Assembly (NCBI GenBank): GCA_963751705.1
Contig: CAVVVN010000003.1
Span: 855,446 to 919,445, forward strand
Source of the DNA: an uncultured Bacteroidales bacterium
GTDB taxonomy: Bacteria; Bacteroidota; Bacteroidia; Bacteroidales; GCA-2748055
Reading direction: 5' to 3'
DNA: 64,000 bases
Shown here: positions 5,205 to 61,572 of the stretch, piece by piece
Numbering within the stretch: position 1 is the stretch's first letter
Layout of the letters: every line of letters starts with the position of its first letter
The notes under the pieces: generated by a model
What the model saw: the letters and a program-made list of their open reading frames with translations, nothing else
Database searches by the model: none
What the model was told of the DNA's origin: nothing
Translations under genes and position numbers: made by a program

Positions 5205-7424
5205 TTACTCCGTCACATCAACCCGATGGACCGAATCCACTCCGCGAAGTTTCATCAGATTAAGGATCAGGTTGTTAAGATCTTTTTTATTGTGCACGTA
5301 GAGGTCAATGGTACCGTTGAAAATTCCATCGTGACCATGCAGATTGATGGTCCTCATGCTGATGTTTAACTCTTTGGTGATGGTATTGGTGATGGAGTTG
5401 TATACTCCAAAACGATCCCAGCCGTTCAGCTGGATCCGGGCCAGGTAGGAGAGTACCTTGTGCTGGGTCCACTTGGCGGCCACCAGCTTATCCCCCTGGC
5501 TGGACATGATTTTAACTGCCGTATTGCAGTCGGTCCGGTGAACCAGCACGGTGCCATCATCCTGCCTTACCGCCACCACTTCGTCGCCTGGAATCGGATT
5601 GCAGCATTTGGCCAGTTGGTAGGGGCTCTCCTCGGTACCAACACTTTCTCTCAGTATCATAGTGCCCCTGGAATCAAACTCCTCTTTATTCTCGATTTTT
5701 TTCTGAGACCGGCCCACCGACAGGTCCCATACCCTCACCCATTTATTCTTTGTATTCTTACTGAGAACCTCCTTCAGATCCTCCAGGGTAATCATTCCAC
5801 TTCCTATTTTGGAGTAGAGTTCATCCTTATGGGTGGAGTCATAGGCCGGTACCAGTTTCTTAAGGATTCTTGAACTGGGAGTCAGATTCAGCTCTTTCAG
5901 CTTTTCTATCAGAAGCTGTTTTCCTACCTCGGTCCGGTTCTTGGTCTCAGCCTTCAGGGCATTCTTGATGGCTGTTTTGGCTTTGACCGTGCTGACAAAC
6001 TGATACCATTCCATGGTGGGCTTCTGCACCTCTGAGGAAAGAATCTCCACCTGGTCGCCACTGCTTAAAATATGGCTCAGGGGAACCAGTTTGTGGTTGA
6101 CTTTGGCTCCGATTGCCTTGTTCCCGATCTCCGTATGAATCTCATAGGCAAAATCAAGTGCAGTCGAATCTGTTGGAAGAGTGATGATGTGACCCTTGGG
6201 AGTAAAAACCATAATCTCCGAGGAGAAGAGGTTCAGTTTAAAATCGTCCAGAAACTCCAGGGCATCTCCTGAGGGGGTTTCCAGGGTTTCCCTGATTCGC
6301 TTGATCCATTTATCCAGCTCCGACTCCGGGGAGGTTTTATCCTTGTATTTCCAATGTGCTGCAAAGCCCCTTTCAGCAATCTCATTCATCCGCCTGGAAC
6401 GGATCTGCACTTCCATCCATTTTCCGTTTGGGCCCATGACGGTCGTATGCAGGGCTTCGTATCCATTGGCCTTGGGAGTGGATACCCAGTCGCGGATCCG
6501 CTCCGGTTTGGGCGCATAGATATCCGTAATAATGGAATAGACGTTCCAGCATTGCGTTTTTTCAGGCACATCCGGTTTGGGTTCGAATACGATGCGAATG
6601 GCAAACAGGTCATAGATCTCTTCGAAGGCTACATTTTTCTGGTGCATTTTCTGCCAGATGGAGTAAATGGATTTGGGCCGTCCCGAAATGTCGAACTCAA
6701 ATCCATTTTTCACCAGGGCATCCATAATGGGCAGGGAGAAATGATTGATCACATGCAAACGCCTCTCTTCCGTTAATTTGATCTTTTCCGATAATTCATT
6801 ATAGACTTCGGGATAGCGGTATTTCAGGCTCAGATCTTCAAGTTCCGATTTCACCGTATACAGACCTAATCGGTGTGCCAGGGGAGCATACAGATAGATG
6901 GTTTCGCCGGCTATTTTAATTTGTTTGTTTCTTGGAAGAGAGCCCAGGGTGCGCATATTGTGCAGACGATCCGCCAGTTTTATAAAGATTACCCTGACAT
7001 CATCGGAAAGGGTGAGCAGCATTTTCCGGAAGTTTTCCGCCTGCAGGGAATTGGATTCCTTGTCAAATACGCCCGAGATCTTGGTGAGGCCGTCAACGAT
7101 AGAGGCGATCTTTTTTCCAAAAGCATTCTCGATGTCCTCAATGCTTATATCCGTATCTTCCACCACATCGTGCAGGATGGCACATACCGTACTGGTCACT
7201 CCCAGCCCAATTTCCTGGCTGACAATAAGAGCAACCTCCAGGGGGTGAATAATATAAGGCTCTCCCGATTTTCTGAGTGTTCCCTTATGTGCCTCATAAG
7301 CCATCTTAAAGGCTTTCCGGATTAGCTTCTCATCCTTGGGCGATTTGCAATAGGAACAGTTTTGAATCAAGCGTTCAAGCAGCTTATTAATCTTATCCTC
7401 GTCTGTTAATACCTTTTCCTCCAT
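5205..7424 (-). CDS. Bifunctional (p)ppGpp synthetase/hydrolase (RelA/SpoT family)
   Basis: 739 aa. HD hydrolase motif HPLEVA...HDVVEDT, synthetase region YSIWQKM...DLFAIRIV, then TGS and ACT-like C-terminal parts. Confidence 0.95.
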   Translation of the reverse strand: MEEKVLTDEDKINKLLERLIQNCSYCKSPKDEKLIRKAFKMAYEAHKGTLRKSGEPYIIHPLEVALIVSQEIGLGVTSTVCAILHDVVEDTDISIEDIENAFGKKIASIVDGLTKISGVFDKESNSLQAENFRKMLLTLSDDVRVIFIKLADRLHNMRTLGSLPRNKQIKIAGETIYLYAPLAHRLGLYTVKSELEDLSLKYRYPEVYNELSEKIKLTEERRLHVINHFSLPIMDALVKNGFEFDISGRPKSIYSIWQKMHQKNVAFEEIYDLFAIRIVFEPKPDVPEKTQCWNVYSIITDIYAPKPERIRDWVSTPKANGYEALHTTVMGPNGKWMEVQIRSRRMNEIAERGFAAHWKYKDKTSPESELDKWIKRIRETLETPSGDALEFLDDFKLNLFSSEIMVFTPKGHIITLPTDSTALDFAYEIHTEIGNKAIGAKVNHKLVPLSHILSSGDQVEILSSEVQKPTMEWYQFVSTVKAKTAIKNALKAETKNRTEVGKQLLIEKLKELNLTPSSRILKKLVPAYDSTHKDELYSKIGSGMITLEDLKEVLSKNTKNKWVRVWDLSVGRSQKKIENKEEFDSRGTMILRESVGTEESPYQLAKCCNPIPGDEVVAVRQDDGTVLVHRTDCNTAVKIMSSQGDKLVAAKWTQHKVLSYLARIQLNGWDRFGVYNSITNTITKELNISMRTINLHGHDGIFNGTIDLYVHNKKDLNNLILNLMKLRGVDSVHRVDVTE

Positions 7425-7507: not shown

Positions 7508-9028
7508 TCAGGGATACAAAACGGTCACATTCCCGGTGTAGGTTTTAAACAATCCGGTGTAGTCAGTATACTGGACATAGTAGACATAGACGCCTTCATT
7601 TACAAAGTCTCCCCCCTTGGAACGTCCGTCCCATCCTTTCCCCGGGTCTTTTGTTTCAAACATCTTCCGGCCACCCCGGTCCATTACCATCAGAACGTAT
7701 TCCCGGGGAGCAAAGTCCATCTGCGGCTTAAATTCAAAATTCATATCATTGCTTCCCGGGGTGAAAGCGCTGGGTAACTGCATATGAGTTTCCACCGTTG
7801 CTTCCGTTATATTGGAGTAACTTATCGCTTCTTCGCCCAGCGCACCGGGATTACTCACTGCGCGTACCCTGTAATGCACCTCGCCGGGCTGAAAGCCATT
7901 CACAACTGACTGGATTGGTTCCTGCCACTGGGTACTCAGCGGTCCCATGGTCTCCAGATCCACAAAGTCCCCGCTTCCGTTTCTTCGCTGGATGACATAG
8001 GCTGCAAGCCCTGCTTCAAAAGTCTCGTAAGGGGTCCAGCTCAGGGTGATCATCTGGTTTTGTATCTCATTTACCAGCAGGATGTTGTTCCCGGGATTGG
8101 ACTGGGAAAGTACCAGGGGGGTGGAACATTCATTGGGGAGAAAAACAGACTCCACGATGTACTGGTAACTGATGGTCGATGTTGAAAACTCATCCTGGAA
8201 AAGCTGGGTGGATTCGCTTATGTTCCAGAGGTTTTCCACCTCTATATAGGGGGTGTTAGGATTACTTCTCCTGGATATCCTGAAACTTTTAACCGGACCG
8301 TCAATATCTGCCGTAAACTGGAGTTCCACTGTTGCCTCATCCAACACTGTAACATGATCTATAATCAGGGAAGTGGGAGCTTGCGGATGCAAAGTGGCTA
8401 CCGTTTCCAGGGCAGAGAGCGAGGATATCCCGGTGGGGGCATGAATGGTTTCAATGTAATAGCTGTAGGTGGCATTCCCCACTACATTCTCATGAATAAA
8501 GGTATTAGTGCCGGCCTGGACGAAATCCAACAGTTGCATGGGTTCATTTGATCTGCCACCGTAAATATTGTATCCGGCAATTTCTCCTTCCCAACCCTCG
8601 TAGCTGGTCCACGTAAGTGTATTGGAATGCGTACAAAGATCAAACTCTACGTAGAGGTCCACAGCTCTGTGCACATTATCGCTGAAAATACTCCTGATCG
8701 AATCATTGGTTTCAGCGGTAACTGCATAAGCCAGGTTGTGCAGCTCACTGTTCATGTGTTTAAATTCCAGGATATTGGAAGAGAATTCCAGGAGTTGAGA
8801 GAAGCTCATGTCAGGATTTCTTCTCCACAACTGATAGAAGGCGATCCCGGTATCGGTACTGGGCTCCCACCTGATGAGGACTCCATTGTCGGAGTGGTCT
8901 ACCGTTACTACGATCAGATCCGGAATATCGGGCAGATCCTGAGCTGACGTCCGGAGAGGATATAAAAAGAGGAGCACTACAAGTAGTGCCGGAAACAGGA
9001 TCTCCGGATATGCTTTTACTCTCCTCAT
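7508..9028 (-). CDS. Secreted FN3-repeat protein with a T9SS type B (gliding-motility-associated) C-terminal sorting domain
   Basis: Signal peptide (LLVVLLFLYPLRTSAQD). The C-terminus, FTPGSNDMNFEF...VMDRGGRKMFE...GWDGRSKGG...GVYVYYV, matches the CHU_C/type B sorting-domain pattern. Confidence 0.7.
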   Translation of the reverse strand: MRRVKAYPEILFPALLVVLLFLYPLRTSAQDLPDIPDLIVVTVDHSDNGVLIRWEPSTDTGIAFYQLWRRNPDMSFSQLLEFSSNILEFKHMNSELHNLAYAVTAETNDSIRSIFSDNVHRAVDLYVEFDLCTHSNTLTWTSYEGWEGEIAGYNIYGGRSNEPMQLLDFVQAGTNTFIHENVVGNATYSYYIETIHAPTGISSLSALETVATLHPQAPTSLIIDHVTVLDEATVELQFTADIDGPVKSFRISRRSNPNTPYIEVENLWNISESTQLFQDEFSTSTISYQYIVESVFLPNECSTPLVLSQSNPGNNILLVNEIQNQMITLSWTPYETFEAGLAAYVIQRRNGSGDFVDLETMGPLSTQWQEPIQSVVNGFQPGEVHYRVRAVSNPGALGEEAISYSNITEATVETHMQLPSAFTPGSNDMNFEFKPQMDFAPREYVLMVMDRGGRKMFETKDPGKGWDGRSKGGDFVNEGVYVYYVQYTDYTGLFKTYTGNVTVLYP

Positions 9029-9146: not shown

Positions 9147-10919
9147 ATGGCCGAAAAGGGGCTTTTGCATAGGGTTAATCGTTTTAAGATCAGGTATTTA
9201 TCTGGACACAGGTTTCTCTATGTTCTCGCTGCTGTTGTGGGGCTGGCTGTGGGGCTGGCCGCGGTCGTTATCAAAAACCTGGTTCATTTCATTCATGAAG
9301 CATTGCAGCATGGATTTCAGGGCGATAACAGCAAGTATTACATCTTCTTAATTCCCATTGTGGGAATCACGCTCACCGTACTTTTTATAAAGTACATCAA
9401 CAAGCATCCGGTGGGGCACGGGATTCCCAGTGTTCTCTTCGCCATTTCAAAGAACAACGGCATCATCCGGTCTCACAATCTCTATTCCAGCATTATTACC
9501 AGTGCACTGACTGTCGGGTTTGGCGGATCTGTGGGATTGGAAGGGCCTACAGTGGCTACAGGAGGAGCTGTAGGTTCAAATATTGGCCGGGCCCTTAAAC
9601 TGAATTATAAAGAGGTCACGCTGCTGATTTCCTGTGCCTGTGCCGGGGCCCTTTCGGCCATCTTCAAAGCTCCCATTGCCGGAATTGTCTTCGCCCTGGA
9701 GGTTATTATGCTGGATCTCACCATGTGGGCCGTGATTCCCCTGCTGATTGCTTCGGCCACCGCTGCTCTTACCTCCTATCTTTTTTTGGGTCAGAATGTG
9801 CTCTACTCTTTCCAGCTTACGGATCCCTTTTTAATGGGCGAAATCCACTACTACCTGCTGCTTGGAATTCTTACCGGATTGCTTTCCGTCTATTTTACAA
9901 AGAGTTATATACGAATCTCCGGATTATTTGAGAAAATCAAGAGTCCCTGGAAGAGATTGTTTCTGGGCGGCGGGATCCTCGGTTTGATTATCCTGATCTT
10001 TCCACCCCTCTACGGGGAGGGTTACGACATAGTGAATCTTGAGCTGAGGGGAGAATATTTTCATCTCTTTGAAAACAGTTTTTTTGAAGGGTGGCAACAT
10101 AGTTTTGCGCTCCTTGCGGTCTTTATGCTGCTTATCATCGGTTTAAAGGTGATAGCTACCACCGTCACCTTTTCGGCCGGTGGCATCGGAGGTGTTTTTG
10201 CACCAACCCTCTTTATGGGTGCCAATACGGGCCTGCTCTTCGGACTGGTCCTGAATCAGTTGGGGATTGAGGTATCAGTGAGCAATATGGCGCTGGTTGG
10301 GATGGCCGGAATGATTGCAGGTGTGGTTCATGCTCCGCTGACGGCCATTTTTCTGATCGCTGAAATTACAGGGGGTTATGAACTCTTTTTTCCGCTGATG
10401 CTTGCGGCCACCATCTCCTTTGGCACTACCCGCTATTTTGTAAAGAACTCTGTATATACAGTCCAGCTGGCCAAGCGCGGGGAGTTGATGACCCATCACA
10501 AGGACCGCAACATATTGCTGATGATGAAGGTGTCGACCTTGCTGGAAACCAACTTTAAAACGGTCCGTGAAGAAGATACACTCAGAGACCTGGTGGATGT
10601 GATTACCACCTCCAGCAGGAACATATACCCGGTAGTGGATGAAAAGAACAATATGAAAGGCCTGGTAAAACTGGATGATATCAGGCACATCATGTTCAAC
10701 CAGGAGATGTATGACAATATCCTCGTCCGCGATTTAATGCATACCCCTGAGTGGACCATCGAAAGTACAGATCAGATGGAGGAGGTGGCCAGGCAGTTTT
10801 CTGAAAGTGGCCGCTATAATCTTCCAGTTCTGCAGAACGGGAAATATCTTGGATTTGTCTCCCGGGCCAGGGTTTTCTCCTCCTACCGGGAAATGCTGAA
10901 GCACTTTTCGGAGGAATAG
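9147..10919 (+). CDS. ClC-family chloride channel/antiporter with C-terminal CBS pair
   Basis: 590 aa. Selectivity-filter-like motifs GSVGLEGP and GGIGGVFAP, multiple TM helices, and a CBS-like tail. Confidence 0.9.
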   Translation: MAEKGLLHRVNRFKIRYLSGHRFLYVLAAVVGLAVGLAAVVIKNLVHFIHEALQHGFQGDNSKYYIFLIPIVGITLTVLFIKYINKHPVGHGIPSVLFAISKNNGIIRSHNLYSSIITSALTVGFGGSVGLEGPTVATGGAVGSNIGRALKLNYKEVTLLISCACAGALSAIFKAPIAGIVFALEVIMLDLTMWAVIPLLIASATAALTSYLFLGQNVLYSFQLTDPFLMGEIHYYLLLGILTGLLSVYFTKSYIRISGLFEKIKSPWKRLFLGGGILGLIILIFPPLYGEGYDIVNLELRGEYFHLFENSFFEGWQHSFALLAVFMLLIIGLKVIATTVTFSAGGIGGVFAPTLFMGANTGLLFGLVLNQLGIEVSVSNMALVGMAGMIAGVVHAPLTAIFLIAEITGGYELFFPLMLAATISFGTTRYFVKNSVYTVQLAKRGELMTHHKDRNILLMMKVSTLLETNFKTVREEDTLRDLVDVITTSSRNIYPVVDEKNNMKGLVKLDDIRHIMFNQEMYDNILVRDLMHTPEWTIESTDQMEEVARQFSESGRYNLPVLQNGKYLGFVSRARVFSSYREMLKHFSEE

Positions 10920-52843: not shown

Positions 52844-53202
52844 GGACGAAGTCCTGAGTAATCATAAAACGACAAAAGATTCCAGGCCTTCTACATACAC
52901 ACCCCAATAAATCAAAAAAAATAGGACCTCATTTTTTTTCATATCCGTTTCGATCATCTCTCAGCTATCAGTAAACAGGCGATACTCAAATCATTCAAAC
53001 AGGAGTTGCCCCTAATTAGAAGGCCTTGAAATTTATAATTTTATATTGTAAATTATGATTGATAAACAAACCGGAAATGAGGCGATTTGACAAACGCTAT
53101 CCGATGAGCCATCAGTTTTTTGGTTGAAGATGCTCTCTTTTTGCTCAGTAAAGTATTGACTGGGATTCAAAACATTCAAGAAACAATATCAATGGATTCA
53201 TT

Positions 53203-54201
53203 ATGAAAAAGCTTCTGGTTTTAATGGCGATGTCGGCATTTATGTGCAGCACTCTTGGTGCCCAAAACTTGCATCGGGTCAATAACAATACCGATTTCGA
53301 TGCTGATTTTTCCACCCTTCAGGCCGCTGTCACTGCTGCCTCAGATAATGATACCATTTATGTGGAAGGTTCAGCAATAAATTATGAGGGAGCCACGATT
53401 GACAAACCATTGACCATTGTGGGCCCGGGGTTCTTTTTAAGTGAGAACCCGGAAACCCAGGCAAATAATACCAGTGCGACCTTTGATTCCGAAATAACAT
53501 TTACCAGCGGTTCGGAAGGAAGTACCATTATGGGGTGCGATTTTTTATTCGCTAATCTGACCATAAGCGTTAGTGATATCTCTGTAATTAGAAACTATTT
53601 ATATCAAATAGAGTTTACTGGCACCAGCAATAATATTGTAGTAATACAAAACTATGTTTACGCCAACATTAATGCAGGGACCGGGGATATTATGAATTCA
53701 ATCATATCCAATAATATTATTAGAGGTGCGATATATGCACAAAGTACGAGCGGACCATTGATTGTATCGAACAATGTATGCTGGACAACAAACTGGGCTT
53801 ATCCAATTGACTGCCATAATGCAAGCATCCAGAATAATATTATAAGCTATGAATTTTCCACCATCAACCTGAATACAGGCAATACCATCTCCTACAATAT
53901 CCTGGCTGAAGATGGCACTGATGCCAACGGGAACCAGTATAATGTCGATATGGATATGGTATTTGCCGATTTTGACGGAAGCTTACTTCTGAGTACTGAT
54001 GGCAAGTGGGAACTGATGGCAGGTTCCCCTGCACTTGCTGGCGGAAGTGGTGGGGTGGATTGTGGTGCTTTTGGGGGATCGACTCCCTATATTCTATCTG
54101 GCGTGCCCAACCTGCCTCATATTTATGAAGCTGATGTCCCGGCATCTGCCACTTCTGAATCCGGACTTCAGGTGAGTATCAAGGTAAAGAGCGGAGAATA
54201 A
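53203..54201 (+). CDS. Secreted right-handed beta-helix repeat protein (function unknown)
   Basis: Signal peptide MKKLLVLMAMSAFMCSTLGAQ. Periodic NN(I/V)I motifs (IISNNIIRG, IVSNNVCW, IQNNIISY) are typical of parallel beta-helix proteins. Confidence 0.6.
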   Translation: MKKLLVLMAMSAFMCSTLGAQNLHRVNNNTDFDADFSTLQAAVTAASDNDTIYVEGSAINYEGATIDKPLTIVGPGFFLSENPETQANNTSATFDSEITFTSGSEGSTIMGCDFLFANLTISVSDISVIRNYLYQIEFTGTSNNIVVIQNYVYANINAGTGDIMNSIISNNIIRGAIYAQSTSGPLIVSNNVCWTTNWAYPIDCHNASIQNNIISYEFSTINLNTGNTISYNILAEDGTDANGNQYNVDMDMVFADFDGSLLLSTDGKWELMAGSPALAGGSGGVDCGAFGGSTPYILSGVPNLPHIYEADVPASATSESGLQVSIKVKSGE

Positions 54202-54222
54202 ACTGCGTAAAATAAATCAAAG

Positions 54223-55224
54223 ATGAGAAAGGCAACAATCTTATTCATAGCGTTATTTGTTCCGCTGCTTTTTTATGCCCAGGATATTGATTATGCGGAA
54301 TATTTTATTGATTCCGACCCGGGTTTCGGCACAGCCACGCCCATAGCGGTTTCTGCGACAGGAAGCGATATTTACCTGGATTTCAATGCAGATATTGCTG
54401 CCCTTCAGCCAGGGATCCATTACCTGGTAATCAGGGCCCGGGATGATCAGGGACAATGGAGTCAGGGATCAAATACTGTTTTTTATCTTGTTAGGTCCCC
54501 GGATGTCAGTGAGAGCAATATTAATCAGGCCGAATATTTTATCGATACAGATCCGGGTTTTGGAGAGGGTGTCTCCATTCCGGTCCCAACTCCCGGAAAC
54601 GATCTGACACTCGATCTTAGCCCCGGGCTTGAGAGCCTGGATCAGGGCATCCACTACATTCACTTCAGAGCACGAGATGTTTCAGGGAGATGGGGTTCGG
54701 TCGTAAATAGGGTATTCTTAATCGCAGAACTGCCCTCCTCAACCGAATCAGAGATTCAGCAAGTTGAATACTTTATTGATAACGATCCTGGTTTTGGTCT
54801 GGGCACCCAGGTAAGCCTGCCATCAGCCGGAAACGATATGACCATCAATTTCTCTGTTTCCTTAAGCGGATTGTCCGATGGGGACCATGTCCTCTATATA
54901 AGGGCTAAAAATGCCCTGAATAAGTGGGGAATGATCTATGCAGAAAGCTTTTCATATACCCTCGTTGGAATAGGAGAGGAGGAAATGACTTCTCTCTATA
55001 GAATTTATCCAAATCCTACCAGTGGCCACCTGCAGATCGAACTAAGCGATCAGCTCCCAAAGGGGTTCAGGATTAAGCTAATGGATCTGAATGGCAAACC
55101 GGTTTATGAAGGCGAATGCCATAACAATCTGTGTGAATTAAACCTTGAACTTCCAGCAGGAATGTACTTGCTAAATATTGAAACCTCAGAGCGCAGTATT
55201 TCACATAAAATAATTCTGGAATAG
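54223..55224 (+). CDS. T9SS cargo protein with three tandem ~70-aa repeats and a type A (Por) C-terminal sorting domain
   Basis: Signal peptide, then three copies of (A/V)EYFID(S/T/N)DPGFG...G(N/S)D(I/L/M)...G(I/D)H(Y/V)...(I/F)RA(R/K)(D/N). The C-terminus, YPNPTSGHLQIEL...GMYLLNIET...HKIILE, fits the Por_Secre_tail pattern. Confidence 0.75.
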   Translation: MRKATILFIALFVPLLFYAQDIDYAEYFIDSDPGFGTATPIAVSATGSDIYLDFNADIAALQPGIHYLVIRARDDQGQWSQGSNTVFYLVRSPDVSESNINQAEYFIDTDPGFGEGVSIPVPTPGNDLTLDLSPGLESLDQGIHYIHFRARDVSGRWGSVVNRVFLIAELPSSTESEIQQVEYFIDNDPGFGLGTQVSLPSAGNDMTINFSVSLSGLSDGDHVLYIRAKNALNKWGMIYAESFSYTLVGIGEEEMTSLYRIYPNPTSGHLQIELSDQLPKGFRIKLMDLNGKPVYEGECHNNLCELNLELPAGMYLLNIETSERSISHKIILE

Positions 55225-55253
55225 AGATTTATTTTCGCAATAATACTTTAAGT

Positions 55254-55528
55254 TCATTCATCCAGAGGAGGAATAACTCCCATCTGCTGGAGCATCCCGA
55301 GATTATCCATGCTTGCCCAGAGCTCTGCGATCTTTCCATTTTCAATACGGAACACCTCGATACCCTTGACAACGACCGACTTATTCGTGGCCGGGATTCC
55401 CATAAAAGCGCCCTTGTGTGTACAGTTTGCTGTCCAGACTTTTACGACCTTAGCTCCTTCTGCCCCATGATAGTAATAGAAGGAATAAGCCGCAACAGTG
55501 CAAGCAGTGCAAATACGTTCTTTTTCAT
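55254..55528 (-). pseudogene. Truncated, frameshifted SnoaL-like ester cyclase remnant
   Basis: A signal-peptide ORF (MKKNVFALLALL...) stops after 28 codons. Another frame then reads THKGAFMGIPATNKSVVVKGIEVFRIENGKIAELWASMDNLGMLQQMGVIPP, the C-terminal third of SnoaL-like cyclases. Total length is 275 nt, not a multiple of 3. Confidence 0.6.
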
Positions 55529-55599: not shown

Positions 55600-57083
55600 A
55601 AAAGACGACTATCTCCAGTCGGCATTTCGCATTGGAAAAAGCCTTTCTGTTCCGTCAGGTCCATACCAATGATTTTGGACCTACATTACTGGATCAAAAA
55701 TATATTTGCGCCATTGGGGGAGAACCTGGGATGTCATTGGTTCCTTTTGTTTTCCGTGGAAAGATCTGTAAGATCACTGAAGCAATATCAATGGAATATG
55801 TGAATCCAGTTGCCTGTTGGTTCCGGAGGAAAATCCGGATACATCTCTGGTAAACCTTTTCCCATCATTGAAAAGGAGGGAGCTTCAATAATTCCAGCCA
55901 GGTTATTACCAGAACACCGGATTGGTCCATCGGAATTCATGAGGTATATTTCGAGTCATTGGGTCAATACCTACGGTCAGAGCTACAATCAGGTTTCCAT
56001 CCGGGGAGTAATCCATATCCCTGAAGTGTCTGTTGGCTGGGGCAGTGGTGATAACTCCCTCAACGGTACCATCATGCTGAATATAGGAGAGTCTGTCATA
56101 ATTTCCATATAATGATCTGTTCTCCAGCGGGTGACCATGCCAGACCTCTTCCTGGATTATTGTAGCCGGTGATTGGTCTCTTTGGATATTTTCATTTGAT
56201 TGGTTCCATCCCTGTTCATGGTAAAAATATGCGGCTCCAGGTTATAGTGAGCTACATAGGCTACCTTGTTGCGAAGAGGACTTAATCTGGGTTGCCAGTC
56301 GTCAGAGTAATTGACGGTCAGTTGCACCAGTATGAGTCTCAAGACTGTCGCTGGAAAAGATTTCATAATCTCCTTCAGCGGTCATCCTGGTGAACATGAA
56401 ACTCATTATCAGGCAGAGGCATGGTCCTGAAAGTAAGTAATTCACTTTTCACGGAAGCATAGGGATCGGAGGCTGTTACCTGCCAGTAATAGACTGTATT
56501 AAAGCTCAGGTTCTCCACGGTAAGCATGCGTGTCGGTGAGTCCTGTAGAACAGCTGTGCGTTTTCGTGATTGGATTCGTAAAGTTCCACATCAAACAGTG
56601 AGGCTATCCTCCGGATTGGCATCATGTTACGGTCCAGCTGAGGGTTAGATTAACCGCTTGATTAATGCTCTCCGTTAGCAGGTGAAAAAGAACCGCTGAA
56701 AACTCAGGAGGATCGTTATATTCACTGCTTCGCTCCATAAGGACCACCACTGTTGTGGTTTTGTCCTTGCTGCACGGAAACTGAAACTGATTCAGAAACA
56801 TATCCGTTTTTCTTGGCAATCAGGTTGTAATCTCCTACTTCAATGGTCTTAAAAATGAAATAGCCAGCACTATCACTGGCAACTGAAACGCTGGGTGGAT
56901 TGGTGGTCAGAACTGCTCCGCTTAGATTTATTTCGGAAGTAAAATCCATAACGGTTCCATCCAGGATACCTATGGCATTGATATCCAGTTTATCTTCATT
57001 GCAGCCCCTGAAGGAATAGAGCACAATAGAGCAGATGTAAACAGAATCAGGATTGCGGATAGCAATTTATTGAAACGTTGCAT
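55600..57083 (-). pseudogene. Multiply frameshifted lipoprotein gene (carboxypeptidase-regulatory-like domain, FN3-like domain, TolB/PD40 beta-propeller repeats)
   Basis: Signal peptide MQRFNKLLSAILILFTSALL is out of frame with ...YSFRGCNEDKLDINAIGILDGTV...GDYNLIAKKNGY. Other frames carry LTVENLSFNTVYYWQVTASD (FN3-like) and PD40-type segments (SPLRNKVAYV...IFTMNRDGTNQ; MDYSPDGNLI; EIYLMNSDG; PSFSNDGKRF). The 3' boundary is approximate. Confidence 0.6.
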
Positions 57084-57107
57084 AGTCAGTATATAACATG
57101 AATACTC

Positions 57108-57133
57108 CGCTTCCCGCTTATTGCCGGGAAGCG
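57108..57133. terminator. Perfect 9-bp hairpin between the curlin pseudogene and the lipoprotein pseudogene
   Basis: CGCTTCCCG-cttattgc-CGGGAAGCG. No clear U-tract on the minus strand. Confidence 0.35.
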
Positions 57134-57142
57134 TTCACTTAT

Positions 57143-57741
57143 TTATAAATGTTGCCCTGGCTGATGGTAATCTTCATACCCAAGCGAGCCGGACTGGTTC
57201 ACCTTGTATCCGATTCCATCCCTGGTTTCTGTCTGGTATAGTTCGTGGTTATTTCCGGTCTGCTTTAATTGAAAATCAAGGAAATCTGCCTCCAGGTACT
57301 GTTCAATAAAATTTCCATCTCCATTCTGGATCACTGTGTTAATGATATGATCGCCATTATGGATCCCTGAAAAACTGTTATCATTTCCTATTTGAACAAT
57401 ATCTGTGGCATTTTGCATGCCTGTCTGACCAAGTTTGGAAATATTATCGTTCCCATCCTGGTAGACTTTTACCAGATTCGGGTCTGTTTTTCGAATACTG
57501 CTGAATAAAGGCCTGGTTCATATCACCCATCTGTTGCAAGGTGATCCTGTTCAGATCTGACAGTTCCAGCTCCTGTTTCAGGGGCTGGTTCTCAATCGAG
57601 ATCGGATCAATATCTCCAGCCTCAATGGTATTTAGGAATGTCAGGCAGTCCTAGGATCCTGGGCGAAAGCCGTCTATGAAGCATCAATAACAAACAACAG
57701 GCACATACCACTCTTACGGCACATTTGATTCTGTATCCCAT
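57143..57741 (-). pseudogene. Frameshifted second curlin-repeat gene (CsgB/CsgA paralog)
   Basis: The start MGYRIKCAVRVVCACCLLLML hits a stop after 39 codons. Other frames give ...AFAQDP, ITLQQMGDMNQAFIQQYSKN, then VKVYQDGNDNISKLGQTGMQNATDIVQIGNDNSFSGIHNGDHIINTVIQNGDGNFIEQ (curlin-type Q/N-G-N repeats). At least 3 frame changes. Confidence 0.65.
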
Positions 57742-57754
57742 AATTGGTTTTTTA

Positions 57755-57789
57755 ATACCCTCCGGTGAATGCGCGCACCGGAGAGGTAT
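57755..57789 (-). terminator. Strong intercistronic hairpin between the two curlin genes
   Basis: ATACCCTCCGGTG-aatgcgcg-CACCGGAGaGGTAT (13-bp stem with one bulge). Confidence 0.4.
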
Positions 57790-57857
57790 TTTAAACAATA
57801 GTTCTATTTATCGAAAGCAATTACATCTGCCTTGTATTGCTCTTAATAGAGTATCAA

Positions 57858-58820
57858 TTAGTAACTAAACGGCAAGCCGGTAGTAGCAGGATCACTCACC
57901 CCGTTAGCTCTCTGAAGAACATTGCTTTTATTCCTGTCACCCATTTGTACGATATCGCTAAAATTATCCCCGCCAATTTGAACTTCCTGGGAGAAATTAC
58001 CCATACCTCTCTGATAGACATTGGCATCATTAGGCATGGCCCTGACTGTATAATACTGCAGCTGGTAGGCCTCGTTGTTTCCTCCACGTTGTTCAATAAA
58101 AGCCTGGTTGACATCAATTCCACGATGACCCATCACAGATCCTACGTCATTGATCTGAACCTGTAAAGCCACGCTACCCCTGCGGGAATTCTGAATGATA
58201 AAAGCATCATTCTGATACCCCACCTGGTCCTGCTGAGCCCTACTGAATTCATCCACCCGGGGACCTTGACGGATTCGTGCATCACTGATATAAGCATGTC
58301 CATCATAAAACTTGGAGGTACCCTGGTATTGATTGGCAATACCACGATCCCCAAGCTGGTTTATTCTTGCATTGTTCCATAAACCTTCCTGTCCCACATC
58401 TGCTGAATTCCCATTTCCATTCTGATCAACATCAGCATTCAGCTTTCCACCGAGAGGGAAAGCGCGGGAGAGGACAATAACTTGATCCACTTTCGCACTG
58501 TTCCTGTTTCCATTTTGGAAGATGTCAGAGGTGTTTTCATCGTATAATTTGGTATAGAGATTCTCCTGACTTACGTTCACTGAATTTCCATTTCCAAACT
58601 GATTGACCTCAGAATTGTTAATACCTGCACCCTCCTGGGAGACAAAGCTCATAGCATTTCGGTCTCCATCGGTGTAGACATTAGAGTAGTTGAGATCTCC
58701 TTCCTGGGTCACTTTAACATAGCTGCCGTTCCCATACTGTTGGATAAGACTCTCATTATTCTGAGCAAATAAAAAGCAAACAGGTAGAAGCAAAGTCAAA
58801 ATAAAAATTGTTTTTTTCAT
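57858..58820 (-). CDS. Curlin-repeat functional-amyloid subunit (CsgA-like), intact
   Basis: 320 aa. Signal peptide MKKTIFILTLLLPVCFLFAQ, then at least 10 imperfect curlin repeats, for example SLIQQYGNGSYVKVTQEG, SEVNQFGNGNSVNVSQ, SDIFQNGNRNSAKVDQ, ADVDQNGNGNSADVGQ, NQAFIEQRGGNNEAYQLQ. Confidence 0.85.
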   Translation of the reverse strand: MKKTIFILTLLLPVCFLFAQNNESLIQQYGNGSYVKVTQEGDLNYSNVYTDGDRNAMSFVSQEGAGINNSEVNQFGNGNSVNVSQENLYTKLYDENTSDIFQNGNRNSAKVDQVIVLSRAFPLGGKLNADVDQNGNGNSADVGQEGLWNNARINQLGDRGIANQYQGTSKFYDGHAYISDARIRQGPRVDEFSRAQQDQVGYQNDAFIIQNSRRGSVALQVQINDVGSVMGHRGIDVNQAFIEQRGGNNEAYQLQYYTVRAMPNDANVYQRGMGNFSQEVQIGGDNFSDIVQMGDRNKSNVLQRANGVSDPATTGLPFSY

Positions 58821-58844
58821 AACTTCTGATTTTGATTAGTAAAT

Positions 58845-58869
58845 GATTATTTAAGATTTGCGCATTAAT
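58845..58869. repeat. Intergenic motif copy A (GATTATTTAAGATTTGCGCATTAAT)
   Basis: The first 19 nt are identical to copy B. It lies between the barrel-gene stop (58870) and the curlin start (58820). Confidence 0.7.
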
Positions 58870-59358
58870 TTATTTTCCTAGATAAAAGTTGATTCCAAGT
58901 TTTATGGTCCACCAAAAGTCGTTGTATTTACCGTTGGCCATCTGATCCACATAATCATCAAACATCCAGTAATACCCGGCACTTAGATCAATCCCGGTTT
59001 TCTCCGATCGGCATAAATTCCCAACCGATGGTGGCATTAGCAAAGCCGTTGTTGCTCCATTCATTCCAGGCCTGTTCCTCCCAGGGTGCAGGGCCCAGAT
59101 TAAACAGAAAGCCTCCTCCGGCTTCTACATAAGGGGTGCTCTTAAAGTCGTTAAGAAGCCTGTATCTAAAATTCAAACGAGAATACTGGACAACCGTGCT
59201 GTAATAATCCTGTGTAGCCAGCTGTCCTGCTCCTAATCCAAGATCAAAGGAAAAGCGGGAATTCTGTAAAAATCCGATGGTGAGTTCTCCCATAGGACCC
59301 ATGGTTCCACCGGGGATAGTCCCCATCGTAAATCATGGTGCCTCCCAATAATCCCAGT
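58870..59358 (-). pseudogene. Frameshifted outer-membrane beta-barrel (OMP_b-brl-like) coding region downstream of, or fused to, csgG
   Basis: Two overlapping track ORFs (58870-59064 and 58988-59326) join as ...FSFDLGLGAGQ...YVEAGGGFLFNLG...NATIGWEFMPIGE|KTGIDLSAGYYWMF...WWTIKLGINFYLGK, with alternating aromatic and hydrophobic strands. I found no signal peptide of its own. A third frame upstream reads YRSGFKLGLLGGTMIYDG. Confidence 0.5.
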
Positions 59359-60274
59359 TTAAACCCGGAGCGATAAGGGGAGTGATTGAAAACCAAGATA
59401 GTCGGTCTGTCTGCATTTTCCTCTTTTTCTTCCAGATAAGTCCTGATGGCCGCTGGTATTCAGGTCATCTACATCTTTCACCTCCCAGAGGTCATCCAGC
59501 ATCCCTTCAATAATCAGGGCATGGACAGCTTTATCAATGGCTTCCTGAACAGCAATACCGGAAGGTTCATTAAAGGTGAAACCCACTTCTGCTTCCAGTA
59601 GCTTTTTCAAAGAAACATACCGGAATATACCGGCATCCACTTTTGGGACAGGATGGTTTTGGAGGTATGGACGGTTTTTAAAATACGTACCGTTGGAGGT
59701 GGAAATGGCTCTCAGGTAGATGGAAACACGGTCTTCGCGATATTCAGCCGGATCCACCGGCCCCGAAATAGCGCAGTCCTGCGCCCCCCGTCAGAACATT
59801 GGTTTCATAAGAAATAATTCCTCCTTCAAGAATGATACCTGCAAATAGCAAAGGAGGCAGAAGTTGATTCTGATCCTGGTCCTGATCCTGGGCCGTGTAA
59901 TTGGCCCTGCTGGATCGGATGATTTTTCTTTCATTTAGCAGATTACTAAGACCTTCTCTTTCAATGGGAATAAACCATCCAGATTCCTCAAGAGATTCAA
60001 GCAAAATGGAAGTGGCACCCTGGGTGACTGCAGTGGACCAGTTGGCTCCGATATCCGAAGGTTTATATTGCCCGGTCTGGTCACGAAACTTATATACCGC
60101 CACAACCACCGGCTCTTTGGGTTCAGGCAGAAGCTGCATATCTTCGTAAGCACTTGGAATTGGCTCCAAGCCTTGCTTCAGAGGTCTTCATGGGCTGCTT
60201 CATCATGGGAGCACATGCAAACTGCAAAAGCAGTGCGCCATAGAAAGAGATAGGTATGTAAGGTCTTTCTTCAT
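59359..60274 (-). pseudogene. csgG: Curli secretion channel gene csgG, at least 5 frameshifts
   Basis: The N-terminal half (59744-60169) reads ...VAVYKFRDQTGQYKP...STAVTQGATSILLESLEESGWFIPIEREGLSNLLNERKIIR...GGAGLRYFGAGGS. The C-terminal half (59359-59757) reads EYREDRVSIYLRAISTSNG...VDAGIFRYVSLKKLLEAEVGFTFNEP...LWEVKD. Both are collinear with E. coli CsgG. The lipoprotein signal peptide (60170-60274) is split over three frames. Confidence 0.85.
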
Positions 60275-60688
60275 CTAATAATAGGGTACAATAATAGTGG
60301 TTTCACTTCCGGTGATATATATCAATAATCCGGACCTGCATCCCTTCCGAAATAGGGGAGATATCTATTTCGTAGGAACCAAATTTGTAATATCCTTCGG
60401 TAAGACCCGTCTTCTCCGAACTGATTCCGGTAAAATTCCTGGGTGATCGCATTAAGCACCTGGCGATTAATATCTTCCTGGAGGCCTGCCAGGGGATCTT
60501 CTTCAGCCAGGAGATCACTCCTCTTCCGTATAAATATTCTGCGCCTGTGCCTGCCCGAGAAGCCAGTTATAATTGTAGGGATTACCTCCAAAGGCCGGAT
60601 TGATAGGCTGATAGACAAAATCCTGGGCCAGGGTGGTGACCTGAAAACCTGCAAATAAGAATGTGATGGCAATCAAAAGCTTTTTCAT
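60275..60688 (-). pseudogene. csgF: Curli assembly gene csgF, at least 3 frameshifts
   Basis: MKKLLIAITFLFAGFQVTTLAQDFVYQPINPAFGGNPYNYNWLLGQAQAQN then a stop (compare E. coli [26 protein letters not shown]). Other frames continue DPLAGLQEDINRQVLNAITQEF..., GYYKFGSYEIDISPISEGMQVRIIDI and ITGSETTIIVPYY. The TAG abuts the csgG ATG (TAGATG). Confidence 0.8.
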
Positions 60689-60694
60689 GCTTGT

Positions 60695-60720
60695 GACTAT
60701 TTAATGTTTGCGCTTAAAAT
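60695..60720. repeat. Intergenic motif copy C (GACTATTTAATGTTTGCGCTTAAAAT)
   Basis: 23 of 26 nt identical to copy B. It lies between the csgE stop and the csgF ATG, 6 nt from the ATG. Confidence 0.7.
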
Positions 60721-60746
60721 ATATTCAAAACGAATCATCAGATCCG

Positions 60747-61160
60747 TTAAAAAATTCCTGTACCAGATTGATCTGCACTCTGTAATTGTGCCTGTATCTC
60801 CTGGTAATTCAATAAATACTGGCTTGCCAGACTCACCGTATATTCAGATAACATCTCTATCATCTCCTGATTGGGCCTGATAAATTGCTTCAGGAATTCA
60901 AATTCGTCAATAAATACGTGTTATCTGCGTACCAATGCCCGGCATGGGCATTTCTTTAATGGTGATAGAGAAATCCGTAATACTGTGTTGGATTGCTCCA
61001 GTTACTATAAAAATTCATCATAAAAATCCCTGCCAACCTTGGTGATGGTTTCATCAAAAATCATCTCTCCAATCTCAAGATCCAGAGGATCTAGGGCCAG
61101 TTGAGTCTGTTGGGAGTGGTTTGGTTTTGAGCGTATCTCTTCCAGCATCAGTCTGAGCAT
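60747..61160 (-). pseudogene. csgE: Curli specificity/chaperone gene csgE, at least 3 frameshifts; N-terminal signal region not recovered
   Basis: Frames join as ...EMIFDETITKVGRDFYDEF|YSNWSNPTQ..|SITIKEMPMPGIGTQIT|VFIDEFEFLKQFIRPNQ...QSADQSGTGIF, collinear with E. coli CsgE (TVSSIGHDFYRAFSDKW...[21 protein letters not shown]...). Confidence 0.7.
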
Positions 61161-61546
61161 TTAGGGTAGCTAATAAATGACACACTGATTATCAACACTA
61201 TAGACGTATAAGCCAAATTTCATCACTTTTAAAGTAATACTTGACAATGTCGGTCCATTTACATTGTAATTCAGCATTACTAAAGTTATGGAGGTACCTG
61301 CTATTCGCCCAAAAATATGCAATAGGATGTTATCATTTCTTTGATGAAACGGGGTTCTATGCTCCACGAAATGCCTAAAATAGTTGAAAAAGAGCTGGGA
61401 ATAGCGCTTTATCAGGGCAATACAGCAGTATTTCATACATGACGAATCATGTAAAATTTAAGGATGAAATGCAACAAAAATGACGCGATAAACACTAAAA
61501 AAATGTAAACGTTTCAAAAAAGTATCGTATAATTATAATGGTAAAA

Positions 61547-61572
61547 GATTATTTAAGATTTGCGCTTAAAAT
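61547..61572. repeat. Intergenic motif copy B (GATTATTTAAGATTTGCGCTTAAAAT)
   Basis: It lies in the AT-rich spacer between the peptidase gene hairpin and the upstream end of the curli locus. Confidence 0.7.

Follow-up and report, generated by a model that had tools for sequence, protein, structure and literature searches.

The stretch of DNA analysed here, 64,000 nucleotides of contig CAVVVN010000003.1 from an uncultured Bacteroidales bacterium (assembly GCA_963751705.1, positions 855,446 to 919,445) and referred to below as the window, carries on its minus strand, from 61.4 to 55.3 kb, a curli (amyloid-fibre) gene cluster made up of csgE, csgF, csgG, a gene for a 320-aa curlin, a second curlin-repeat gene, a TolB-like propeller gene and a SnoaL gene. 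As the window is written, the 320-aa curlin is the only open frame of this cluster, and all other cluster genes are frame-broken. An initial annotation of the same DNA had taken this as loss of the export machinery with retention of the secreted subunit and had offered three explanations: very recent inactivation, a new export route or role for the curlin, or an error confined to the locus. The results below favour the third and speak against the other two. We place at about 80% the probability that the apparent destruction of the curli genes is a local patch, some 6 kb long, of errors in the sequence consensus and not biology. A technical origin is indicated, as the lesions are superficial, non-mutational in kind and confined to a single assembly.

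Intact versions of the cluster, likewise placed after a peptidase S15 gene and with the same synteny, were found in the retrieved loci L001, L002, L008, L012 and L013 and in the more distant L003–L005. All components are open in L001, L003–L005, L008 and L012. Protein sizes in the relatives are ~206 aa for CsgE, 136 for CsgF, 464 for CsgG, 320 for the curlin, 198 for the second curlin and 501 for the propeller protein, whose gene follows the second curlin gene in L001, L003–L005, L008, L012 and L013. L001 is a 486-kb contig of the uncultured Bacteroidales metagenome-assembled genome (MAG) MFD03551.bin.2.12, with 92% nucleotide identity to the window. The closest relative, L011, is a short-read contig from run ERR11523668 that differs from the window by 24 mismatches in 1745 bp (98.6% identity); within its span, the genes for the curlin and the second curlin are intact. 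Against this background, the features of the window cluster are as follows.

55600..61471, minus strand: patch of assembly-private insertions and deletions (indels), from alignments with L001, L002 and L008 and a check against L011
60747..61223, minus strand: csgE, counted from the likely start MKFGF; 6 private insertions; Pfam CsgE
60275..60688, minus strand: csgF; 3 private single-base insertions; Pfam CsgF
58870..60274, minus strand: csgG, 464 aa in relatives; 10 private insertions and 1 deletion; Pfam CsgG
57858..58820, minus strand: major curlin (CsgA-like), 320 aa, intact; Pfam Curlin_rpt, E=6.7e-21
57143..57741, minus strand: second curlin-repeat gene (CsgB-like candidate), 198 aa in relatives; 5 private insertions and TAC>TAG at 57676-57674
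55609..57083, minus strand: CarboxypepD_reg plus TolB/PD40-like beta-propeller gene, 501 aa in relatives; Pfam and NCBIfam matches on the fragment and on L001
55254..55528, minus strand: SnoaL-like gene remnant; 220-bp internal deletion at 55463 between two GCAGAAG repeats

The damage is local: long open reading frames (ORFs) tile the remainder of the window, in which every gene outside the cluster is a plain ORF, and 61.4–55.3 kb is split into short ORFs. The gene identities and collinear curli architecture proposed in the initial annotation were borne out by Pfam searches with the window fragments (CsgE, E=8e-4; CsgF, 6.9e-16; CsgG, 2.1e-38 and 3.4e-13; Curlin_rpt, 6.7e-21), and the peptides that it quoted were all located in minus-strand ORF fragments. 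Its extent of 57143-61160 was too narrow, since the broken stretch spans 61471 to 55463 and includes the propeller and SnoaL genes; the adjoining barrel ORF that it had counted as a gene of its own is the C-terminal domain of the 464-aa CsgG. CsgE and CsgF (PF10627 and PF10614) are encoded beside csgG, and the intact L001 genes match these families at E=3e-19 and 4e-35. At the sequence level, then, the cluster holds the components by which curli, or type VIII secretion, is recognized, namely a CsgG channel homologue, CsgE and CsgF neighbours and curlin-repeat subunits; open frames for all of them are missing from the window as written. By these homologies, the underlying locus is an ordinary Bacteroidota-type curli (type VIII secretion) operon.

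Lesions were mapped by pairwise and four-way alignment of the window with L001, L002 and L008. Between 61471 and 56110 the alignments revealed 44 insertion events, 38 of them of a single base, and 3 deletions. The adjacent zone from 55963 to 55600 contained about 21 deletions of 1–73 bp and zero insertions, with private substitutions rising to 7–18%. The patch measures ~5.9 kb and ends at the 220-bp SnoaL deletion, where it abuts a block 98.3% identical to L001. Indel density in the 6-kb patch is ~0.9%, and the indels lie in both genes and spacers, leaving 1008–1323 bp around the curlin clean. In csgE, 6–9 private insertions and no deletions were counted, the higher number applying to the extended ORF that is called in the relatives, which reaches 61376; csgF has 3 insertions and no deletions, csgG 10 insertions and 1 deletion, the curlin neither, the second curlin gene 5 insertions and 1 deletion (at the stop codon), and the propeller gene 12 insertions (57030-56110) and ~17 deletions (55963-55620). 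Broken frames were thus correctly noticed at the outset, and the 2–5 frame changes per gene then reported fall short of the breaks in csgE (6–9), csgG (10 and a deletion) and the second curlin gene (5 and the TAG codon). The statement that the 320-aa curlin at 57858-58820 is undisrupted stands, as the ORF is open and free of private indels.

Every insertion and deletion event is private to the window, and none is common to L001, L002, L008, L012 or L013. In the region covered by L011, none of the seven indels is present in that close relative, and the TAG at 57676 is likewise without a counterpart there. The comparison with orthologous loci that the initial annotation had proposed therefore yields intact relatives and lesions confined to the window. 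The inserted bases themselves are unusual in their context: only 9/38 single-base insertions copy a neighbouring base, compared with 44% expected at random (P=0.008). This excludes replication slippage and homopolymer miscounting, and we rejected both homopolymer-length error and slippage as sources of the insertions.

Removal of the private insertions leaves csgE, csgF and csgG without internal stops, and the repaired translations are 87% (CsgE), 92% (CsgF) and 97.4% (CsgG) identical to those of L001. On the window branch, the ratio of the proportions of non-synonymous and synonymous differences (pN/pS) was 0.06 for csgF, 0.07 for csgG and 0.08 for the 5′ part of the propeller gene, with similar values on the branches of the intact L001 and L008 loci. 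The second curlin gene differs from that of L011 by 9 synonymous and 2 non-synonymous changes (pN/pS 0.06). Higher values arose in two places. For csgE the ratio was raised to 0.32, which fits a partly non-coding 5′ extension of the called ORF; in the last 400 bp of the propeller gene it was 0.33, and this value, together with the deletions and the 7–18% private substitutions in the ~360-bp end of the patch, fits noise over real divergence. Relaxed selection on the disrupted genes is not detectable in these ratios. A dN/dS (non-synonymous to synonymous substitution rate) comparison of the intact curlin with the pseudogenes had been suggested in the initial annotation; the pN/pS values obtained here are 0.06–0.08 for csgF, csgG, the second curlin gene and the 5′ part of the propeller gene, and 0.12 for the intact curlin relative to L011.

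The number and kind of the indels are equally hard to reconcile with mutation. Indels in bacteria usually arise at one-tenth of the substitution rate (PMC6054270). Under the generous assumption that all 28 private non-synonymous changes postdate inactivation, the 3.4 kb examined would have accumulated 0.011 neutral substitutions per site, for which ~3.7 indels are predicted; 32 were observed (P=1e-19). Indels are at least tenfold more numerous than the substitutions allow. Bacterial pseudogenes and mutation-accumulation lines show 0.76–0.94 insertions per deletion (PMC6054270), against which the 44:3 ratio of the window is significant at P about 1e-11 to 1e-13. The 44:3 zone also differs from the adjacent 0:21 zone (Fisher P=1e-14). 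Of the marks of an evolutionary pseudogene, namely relaxed selection, a mutational indel spectrum and lesions common to the closest relatives, none was found. The initial claim that the machinery had been lost while the curlin was kept, possibly with a new export route, is therefore not supported, given the privacy of the lesions, the lack of relaxed selection and the non-mutational indel spectrum and ratio.

Two features expected of an error patch were found: the lesions are private to one assembly and their removal restores conserved proteins, and equivalent lesions exist in unrelated conserved genes of a comparable assembly, L001. There, two aconitase-family genes and asnA (L001 16566-20963; window 48.7–51.6 kb) are split by private single-base insertions, five in all, of which three do not copy a neighbouring base; the window and L003 carry intact versions of these genes. 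Consensus errors thus affect housekeeping genes of the deposited L001 MAG. That MAG comes from the MFD-LR catalogue, which was built from Nanopore reads only, using Flye and one round of Medaka (PMC12313526). For the window, a 1,951,532-bp contig of an uncultured lineage implies a long-read assembly. That contig is on record as encoding a curlin 100% identical to ours (P0034) and also the 112-aa csgG fragment of the window (P0037), the fragments having been called as genes in the deposit.

A model for the origin of the patch can be outlined. A poorly supported stretch of ~6 kb in a long-read metagenome assembly would have given rise to ~65 frame-breaking indels that are absent from the DNA of the organism. 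The stretch may have been bridged by one or two reads that overlapped around the curlin, with a low-quality read end possibly located at 55.6–56.0 kb. If bridging reads did overlap there, the intact curlin says nothing about selective retention.

Several observations weigh against this reading. Under uniform errors, the absence of any indel from the curlin ORF has P=9e-5, and a clean stretch of 1008 bp has P=2.6e-3. This stretch is bounded by two apparent insertions, at 58854 and 57846, both of which are spacer duplications of a T; the T at 58854 falls inside a copy of a conserved 21-nt motif (copy 3, described below), equals the ancestral state as found in L003 and is best taken as a natural polymorphism. 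If both duplications are natural, the next error-like events are at 59007 and 57684, and the clean stretch grows to 1323 bp (P=1.4e-4, uniform error), exceeding the curlin ORF by 187 and 174 nt. This overshoot weakens the look of ORF-precise protection and leaves the significance of the gap unchanged. Uneven read support could yield a clean stretch around the curlin, and these 1.0–1.3 kb are the sole feature that an error patch does not fully explain. A nearly pure insertion spectrum outside homopolymers is not what textbooks describe for Nanopore errors, and the platform on which the window source was sequenced is itself inferred. Some lesions look natural: the nonsense change TAC>TAG at 57676 and two deletions between short direct repeats, one of 220 bp (GCAGAAG) and one of 14 bp (TGGAC).

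Some of these observations are what a genuine and very recent inactivation can draw on. In such a scenario, a burst of small indels struck csgE, csgF, csgG, the second curlin gene and the propeller gene, and selection kept the curlin in frame for a new role or export route. The curlin is indel-free against odds of P ~1e-4 with a pN/pS of 0.12 relative to L011, one of the lesions is a nonsense change, and repeats flank some of the deletions, as is common in natural ones; a short metagenome contig, L009, that joins the peptidase gene to the curlin further hints that natural csgEFG loss may occur in the group. We nevertheless regard real inactivation as unlikely. It needs a localised process that yields nearly only non-templated +1 insertions at a rate equal to or above that of substitutions, and then deletions only in the adjacent 0.5 kb; no relaxed selection is detectable in any of the 'dead' genes, and zero lesions are common to a relative just 1.4% divergent (L011). 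That the lesions are real in full, with ~65 indels accumulated over 6 kb within <1.4% divergence by a localised insertion-prone process and a curlin, alone kept open by selection, that works without CsgG, CsgE and CsgF by a different export route or in a different role, is harder still to credit. Were it true, a kept amyloid subunit lacking its dedicated channel would challenge the dependence of curlin on CsgG, CsgE and CsgF, the frameshifts would point to an unknown mutational process, and L009, in which csgEFG are apparently deleted beside a kept curlin, would be a second, independent example.

An artefact other than strict sequencing error could have arisen if the consensus merged two co-occurring strains, or if the data were corrupted in handling or in silico. 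The patch stops precisely at a structural variant and the 98.3%-identical block, where strain mixtures would be likely to confuse a consensus, and the avoidance of neighbour duplication by the inserted bases (9/38 relative to 44%, P=0.008) is odd for any sequencing chemistry. A strain mixture was unsupported when examined: if each inserted base represented the other allele at a neighbouring single-nucleotide polymorphism, most of the resulting changes should be synonymous, and only 15/33 are, about the chance level by a rough estimate made without simulation; data corruption is without direct evidence. We consider this group of explanations improbable. Reading the genes as functional in their written form, through many programmed frameshifts or RNA editing, is barely conceivable: the underlying coding sequence is conserved, and nothing further speaks for recoding, given that the ~40 sites have no common motif or slippery sequence, that close relatives encode equivalent proteins in plain frames, and that the remaining window genes are all plain ORFs. 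A patch of consensus errors thus stays the preferred account of the broken frames.

With the frames restored by comparison with the relatives, the individual proteins can be described. Residues 9–267 of CsgG (L001 protein) align to the whole of E. coli CsgG at E=2e-62, and a candidate lipoprotein leader is marked by Cys20, which is invariant in 30 homologues. Beyond this part, a barrel domain is encoded at ~58870-59385 (minus strand; P0039, residues about 300–464). AlphaFold2 placed eight strands in residues 302–462 with per-residue confidence (predicted local distance difference test, pLDDT) of 84–94, and Foldseek matched the N-terminal part to CsgG structures and the C-terminal ~190 residues to NspA, OmpA, OmpW and OmpX. 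CsgG of this clade is thus predicted to carry a C-terminal, 8-stranded OmpA/NspA-like outer-membrane barrel. The barrel is fused to CsgG in all relatives; CsgG proteins with the extension, ~450–500 aa long, recur throughout Bacteroidota, for example in Fulvivirga, Pontibacter and Marinifilum, and several of them carry a PF13505 annotation. In one literature search, no experimental work on this barrel was found. Used as a protein query, the barrel fragment retrieved only itself and one short ENA fragment, and a search for a closer relative spanning csgG returned none above 97.4% amino-acid identity.

The 320-aa curlin opens with an N-terminal hydrophobic leader, MKKTIFILTLLLPVCFLFAQ. The clean signal peptide claimed for it initially is upheld to the extent that this leader is present, as judged by eye only. 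The at least 10 repeats first noted are amply confirmed, with ~15 Q-x-G-x-x-N motifs spaced ~11 residues apart. A protein search with the curlin found 31 relatives, and identities of 94–99% to relatives were recorded; its pN/pS relative to L011 is the value of 0.12 given above, and its sequence match in the PDB is 8c50, a curlin-repeat protein. The L001 homologue of the second curlin gene is positive for Pfam Curlin_rpt (PF07012) and NCBIfam CsgA/CsgB, and by analogy the 198-aa product is a candidate nucleator. The interval 57250-59250, which covers the end of csgG, the curlin and the second curlin gene, has 3–4x fewer window-private substitutions than neighbouring genes, and its branch lengths differ from those of the flanks, which suggests that the fibre-subunit genes recently recombined between lineages. 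The contig L009 (JGI Ga0209345_10118986, 1.7 kb) presents a separate rearrangement: at 470-600 the interior of the peptidase S15 gene is fused to the curlin 5′ end, in a join that corresponds to window 62578 to 58818 and runs through ~13–16 nt of common sequence, GAAAAAAACAATT. The join removes csgE, csgF, csgG and the curlin ATG. Either L009 is a natural variant that arose by microhomology-mediated deletion, or the contig is chimeric.

In relatives, the called csgE ORF (203–223 aa) opens ~50 codons 5′ of a leader, MKFGFTS...LNAQ, that is hydrophobic as judged by eye (the extension occupies window 61224-61376, minus strand, and L001 7467-7616). The true start of csgE is probably the leader methionine, giving ~156 aa. 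Among non-coding features, the 21-nt motif AAGCGCAAATCTTAAATAATC occurs in three copies in the window, relative to 0 expected by chance, and a GC-rich hairpin lies in the spacer between the two curlin genes:

61547..61567, minus strand: 21-nt motif copy 1, upstream of csgE
60695..60715, minus strand: 21-nt motif copy 2, ending 7 nt before the csgF ATG
58845..58865, minus strand: 21-nt motif copy 3, ending 24 nt before the curlin ATG
57760..57783, minus strand: GC-rich hairpin, terminator- or attenuator-like, between the curlin and the second curlin gene

The motif occupies the equivalent three places in L001 (7284-7299, 8122-8137 and 9959-9973) and in the distant L003–L005 (in L003 at 7282-7297, 8118-8133 and 9958-9973). 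Among the fetched loci it is confined to these csg positions, all three being present in L001, L003 and L005 and a subset in shorter contigs. The motif may serve regulation or translation initiation specifically at this locus; it has no Rfam match. The hairpin was reported on the plus strand, its palindromic stem can form on the minus strand too, and it is kept in L001 and L011. An Rfam scan of 55–62 kb gave no credible RNA family, and a scan for sigma-70 promoters gave no more hits than in shuffled sequence.

The interval 52898-55463 of the window contains two ORFs of 332–333 aa, whose L001 counterparts include a Por_Secre_tail protein, that is, one sorted by the type IX secretion system. This block is 98.3% identical to L001, relative to ~92–93% in the flanks; the more distant L003 lacks it. 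On the left it is bounded by the 220-bp deletion in the SnoaL gene. The block looks like a recently exchanged accessory segment.

Beyond this locus, the case carries a methodological warning: in long-read MAGs, a local patch of private indels can mimic selective gene retention. Three cheap tests, none of which needs reads, can expose such patches: privacy of the lesions relative to close relatives, dN/dS of the 'repaired' genes on the branch concerned, and the indel spectrum together with the indel-to-substitution ratio. The locus itself extends the known Bacteroidota curli systems by one uncultured Bacteroidales lineage and displays two little-studied features, the fusion of CsgG to an OmpA-like barrel and the conserved 21-nt motif.

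Set beside documented cases of gene disruption, the window resembles genuine decay, as in the pseudogenes of Burkholderia symbionts (PMC6054270), in having several frameshifts per gene over neighbouring genes. It differs in every other respect compared: the symbiont pseudogenes are deletion-biased, their indels are ~10x rarer than substitutions and non-synonymous changes accumulate, whereas the window has insertions over deletions at 44:3, indels equal to or exceeding neutral substitutions and pN/pS of 0.06–0.08. The resemblance to Nanopore-only MFD-LR MAGs (PMC12313526) lies in private single-base insertions that split conserved genes, as in L001. The patch departs from L001 in its density (~0.9% compared with ~0.1%), in consisting of nearly all insertions with a deletion-rich tail, and in a platform that is inferred.

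As a secretion system, the cluster shares with the csgBAC-csgDEFG curli of E. coli and Salmonella its CsgE, CsgF and CsgG homologues (PF10627, PF10614 and PF03783) and two curlin-repeat proteins (PF07012). By analogy with E. coli, the subunits would cross the inner membrane via Sec, exit through a CsgG channel capped by CsgE and fitted with CsgF, and then polymerise on the cell surface. In contrast to the enterobacterial system, the window cluster is single and co-directional in the order E-F-G-A-B, without csgC or csgD; CsgG of its clade adds the C-terminal 8-stranded OmpA/NspA-like barrel that modelling predicts; the curlin has 320 aa and ~15 motifs, compared with 5 repeats; and a conserved TolB-like propeller gene lies downstream, with the 21-nt motif before csgE, csgF and the curlin. 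In their 2012 survey, Dueholm et al. described Bacteroidetes curli operons without csgC and csgD, in which the number and size of CsgA/B homologues vary, and found csg genes seldom disrupted (PMC3521004). The window cluster agrees with these operons in lacking csgC and csgD, and is set apart from them by its origin in an uncultured Bacteroidales lineage known only from metagenomes and by frames that are broken in one assembly.

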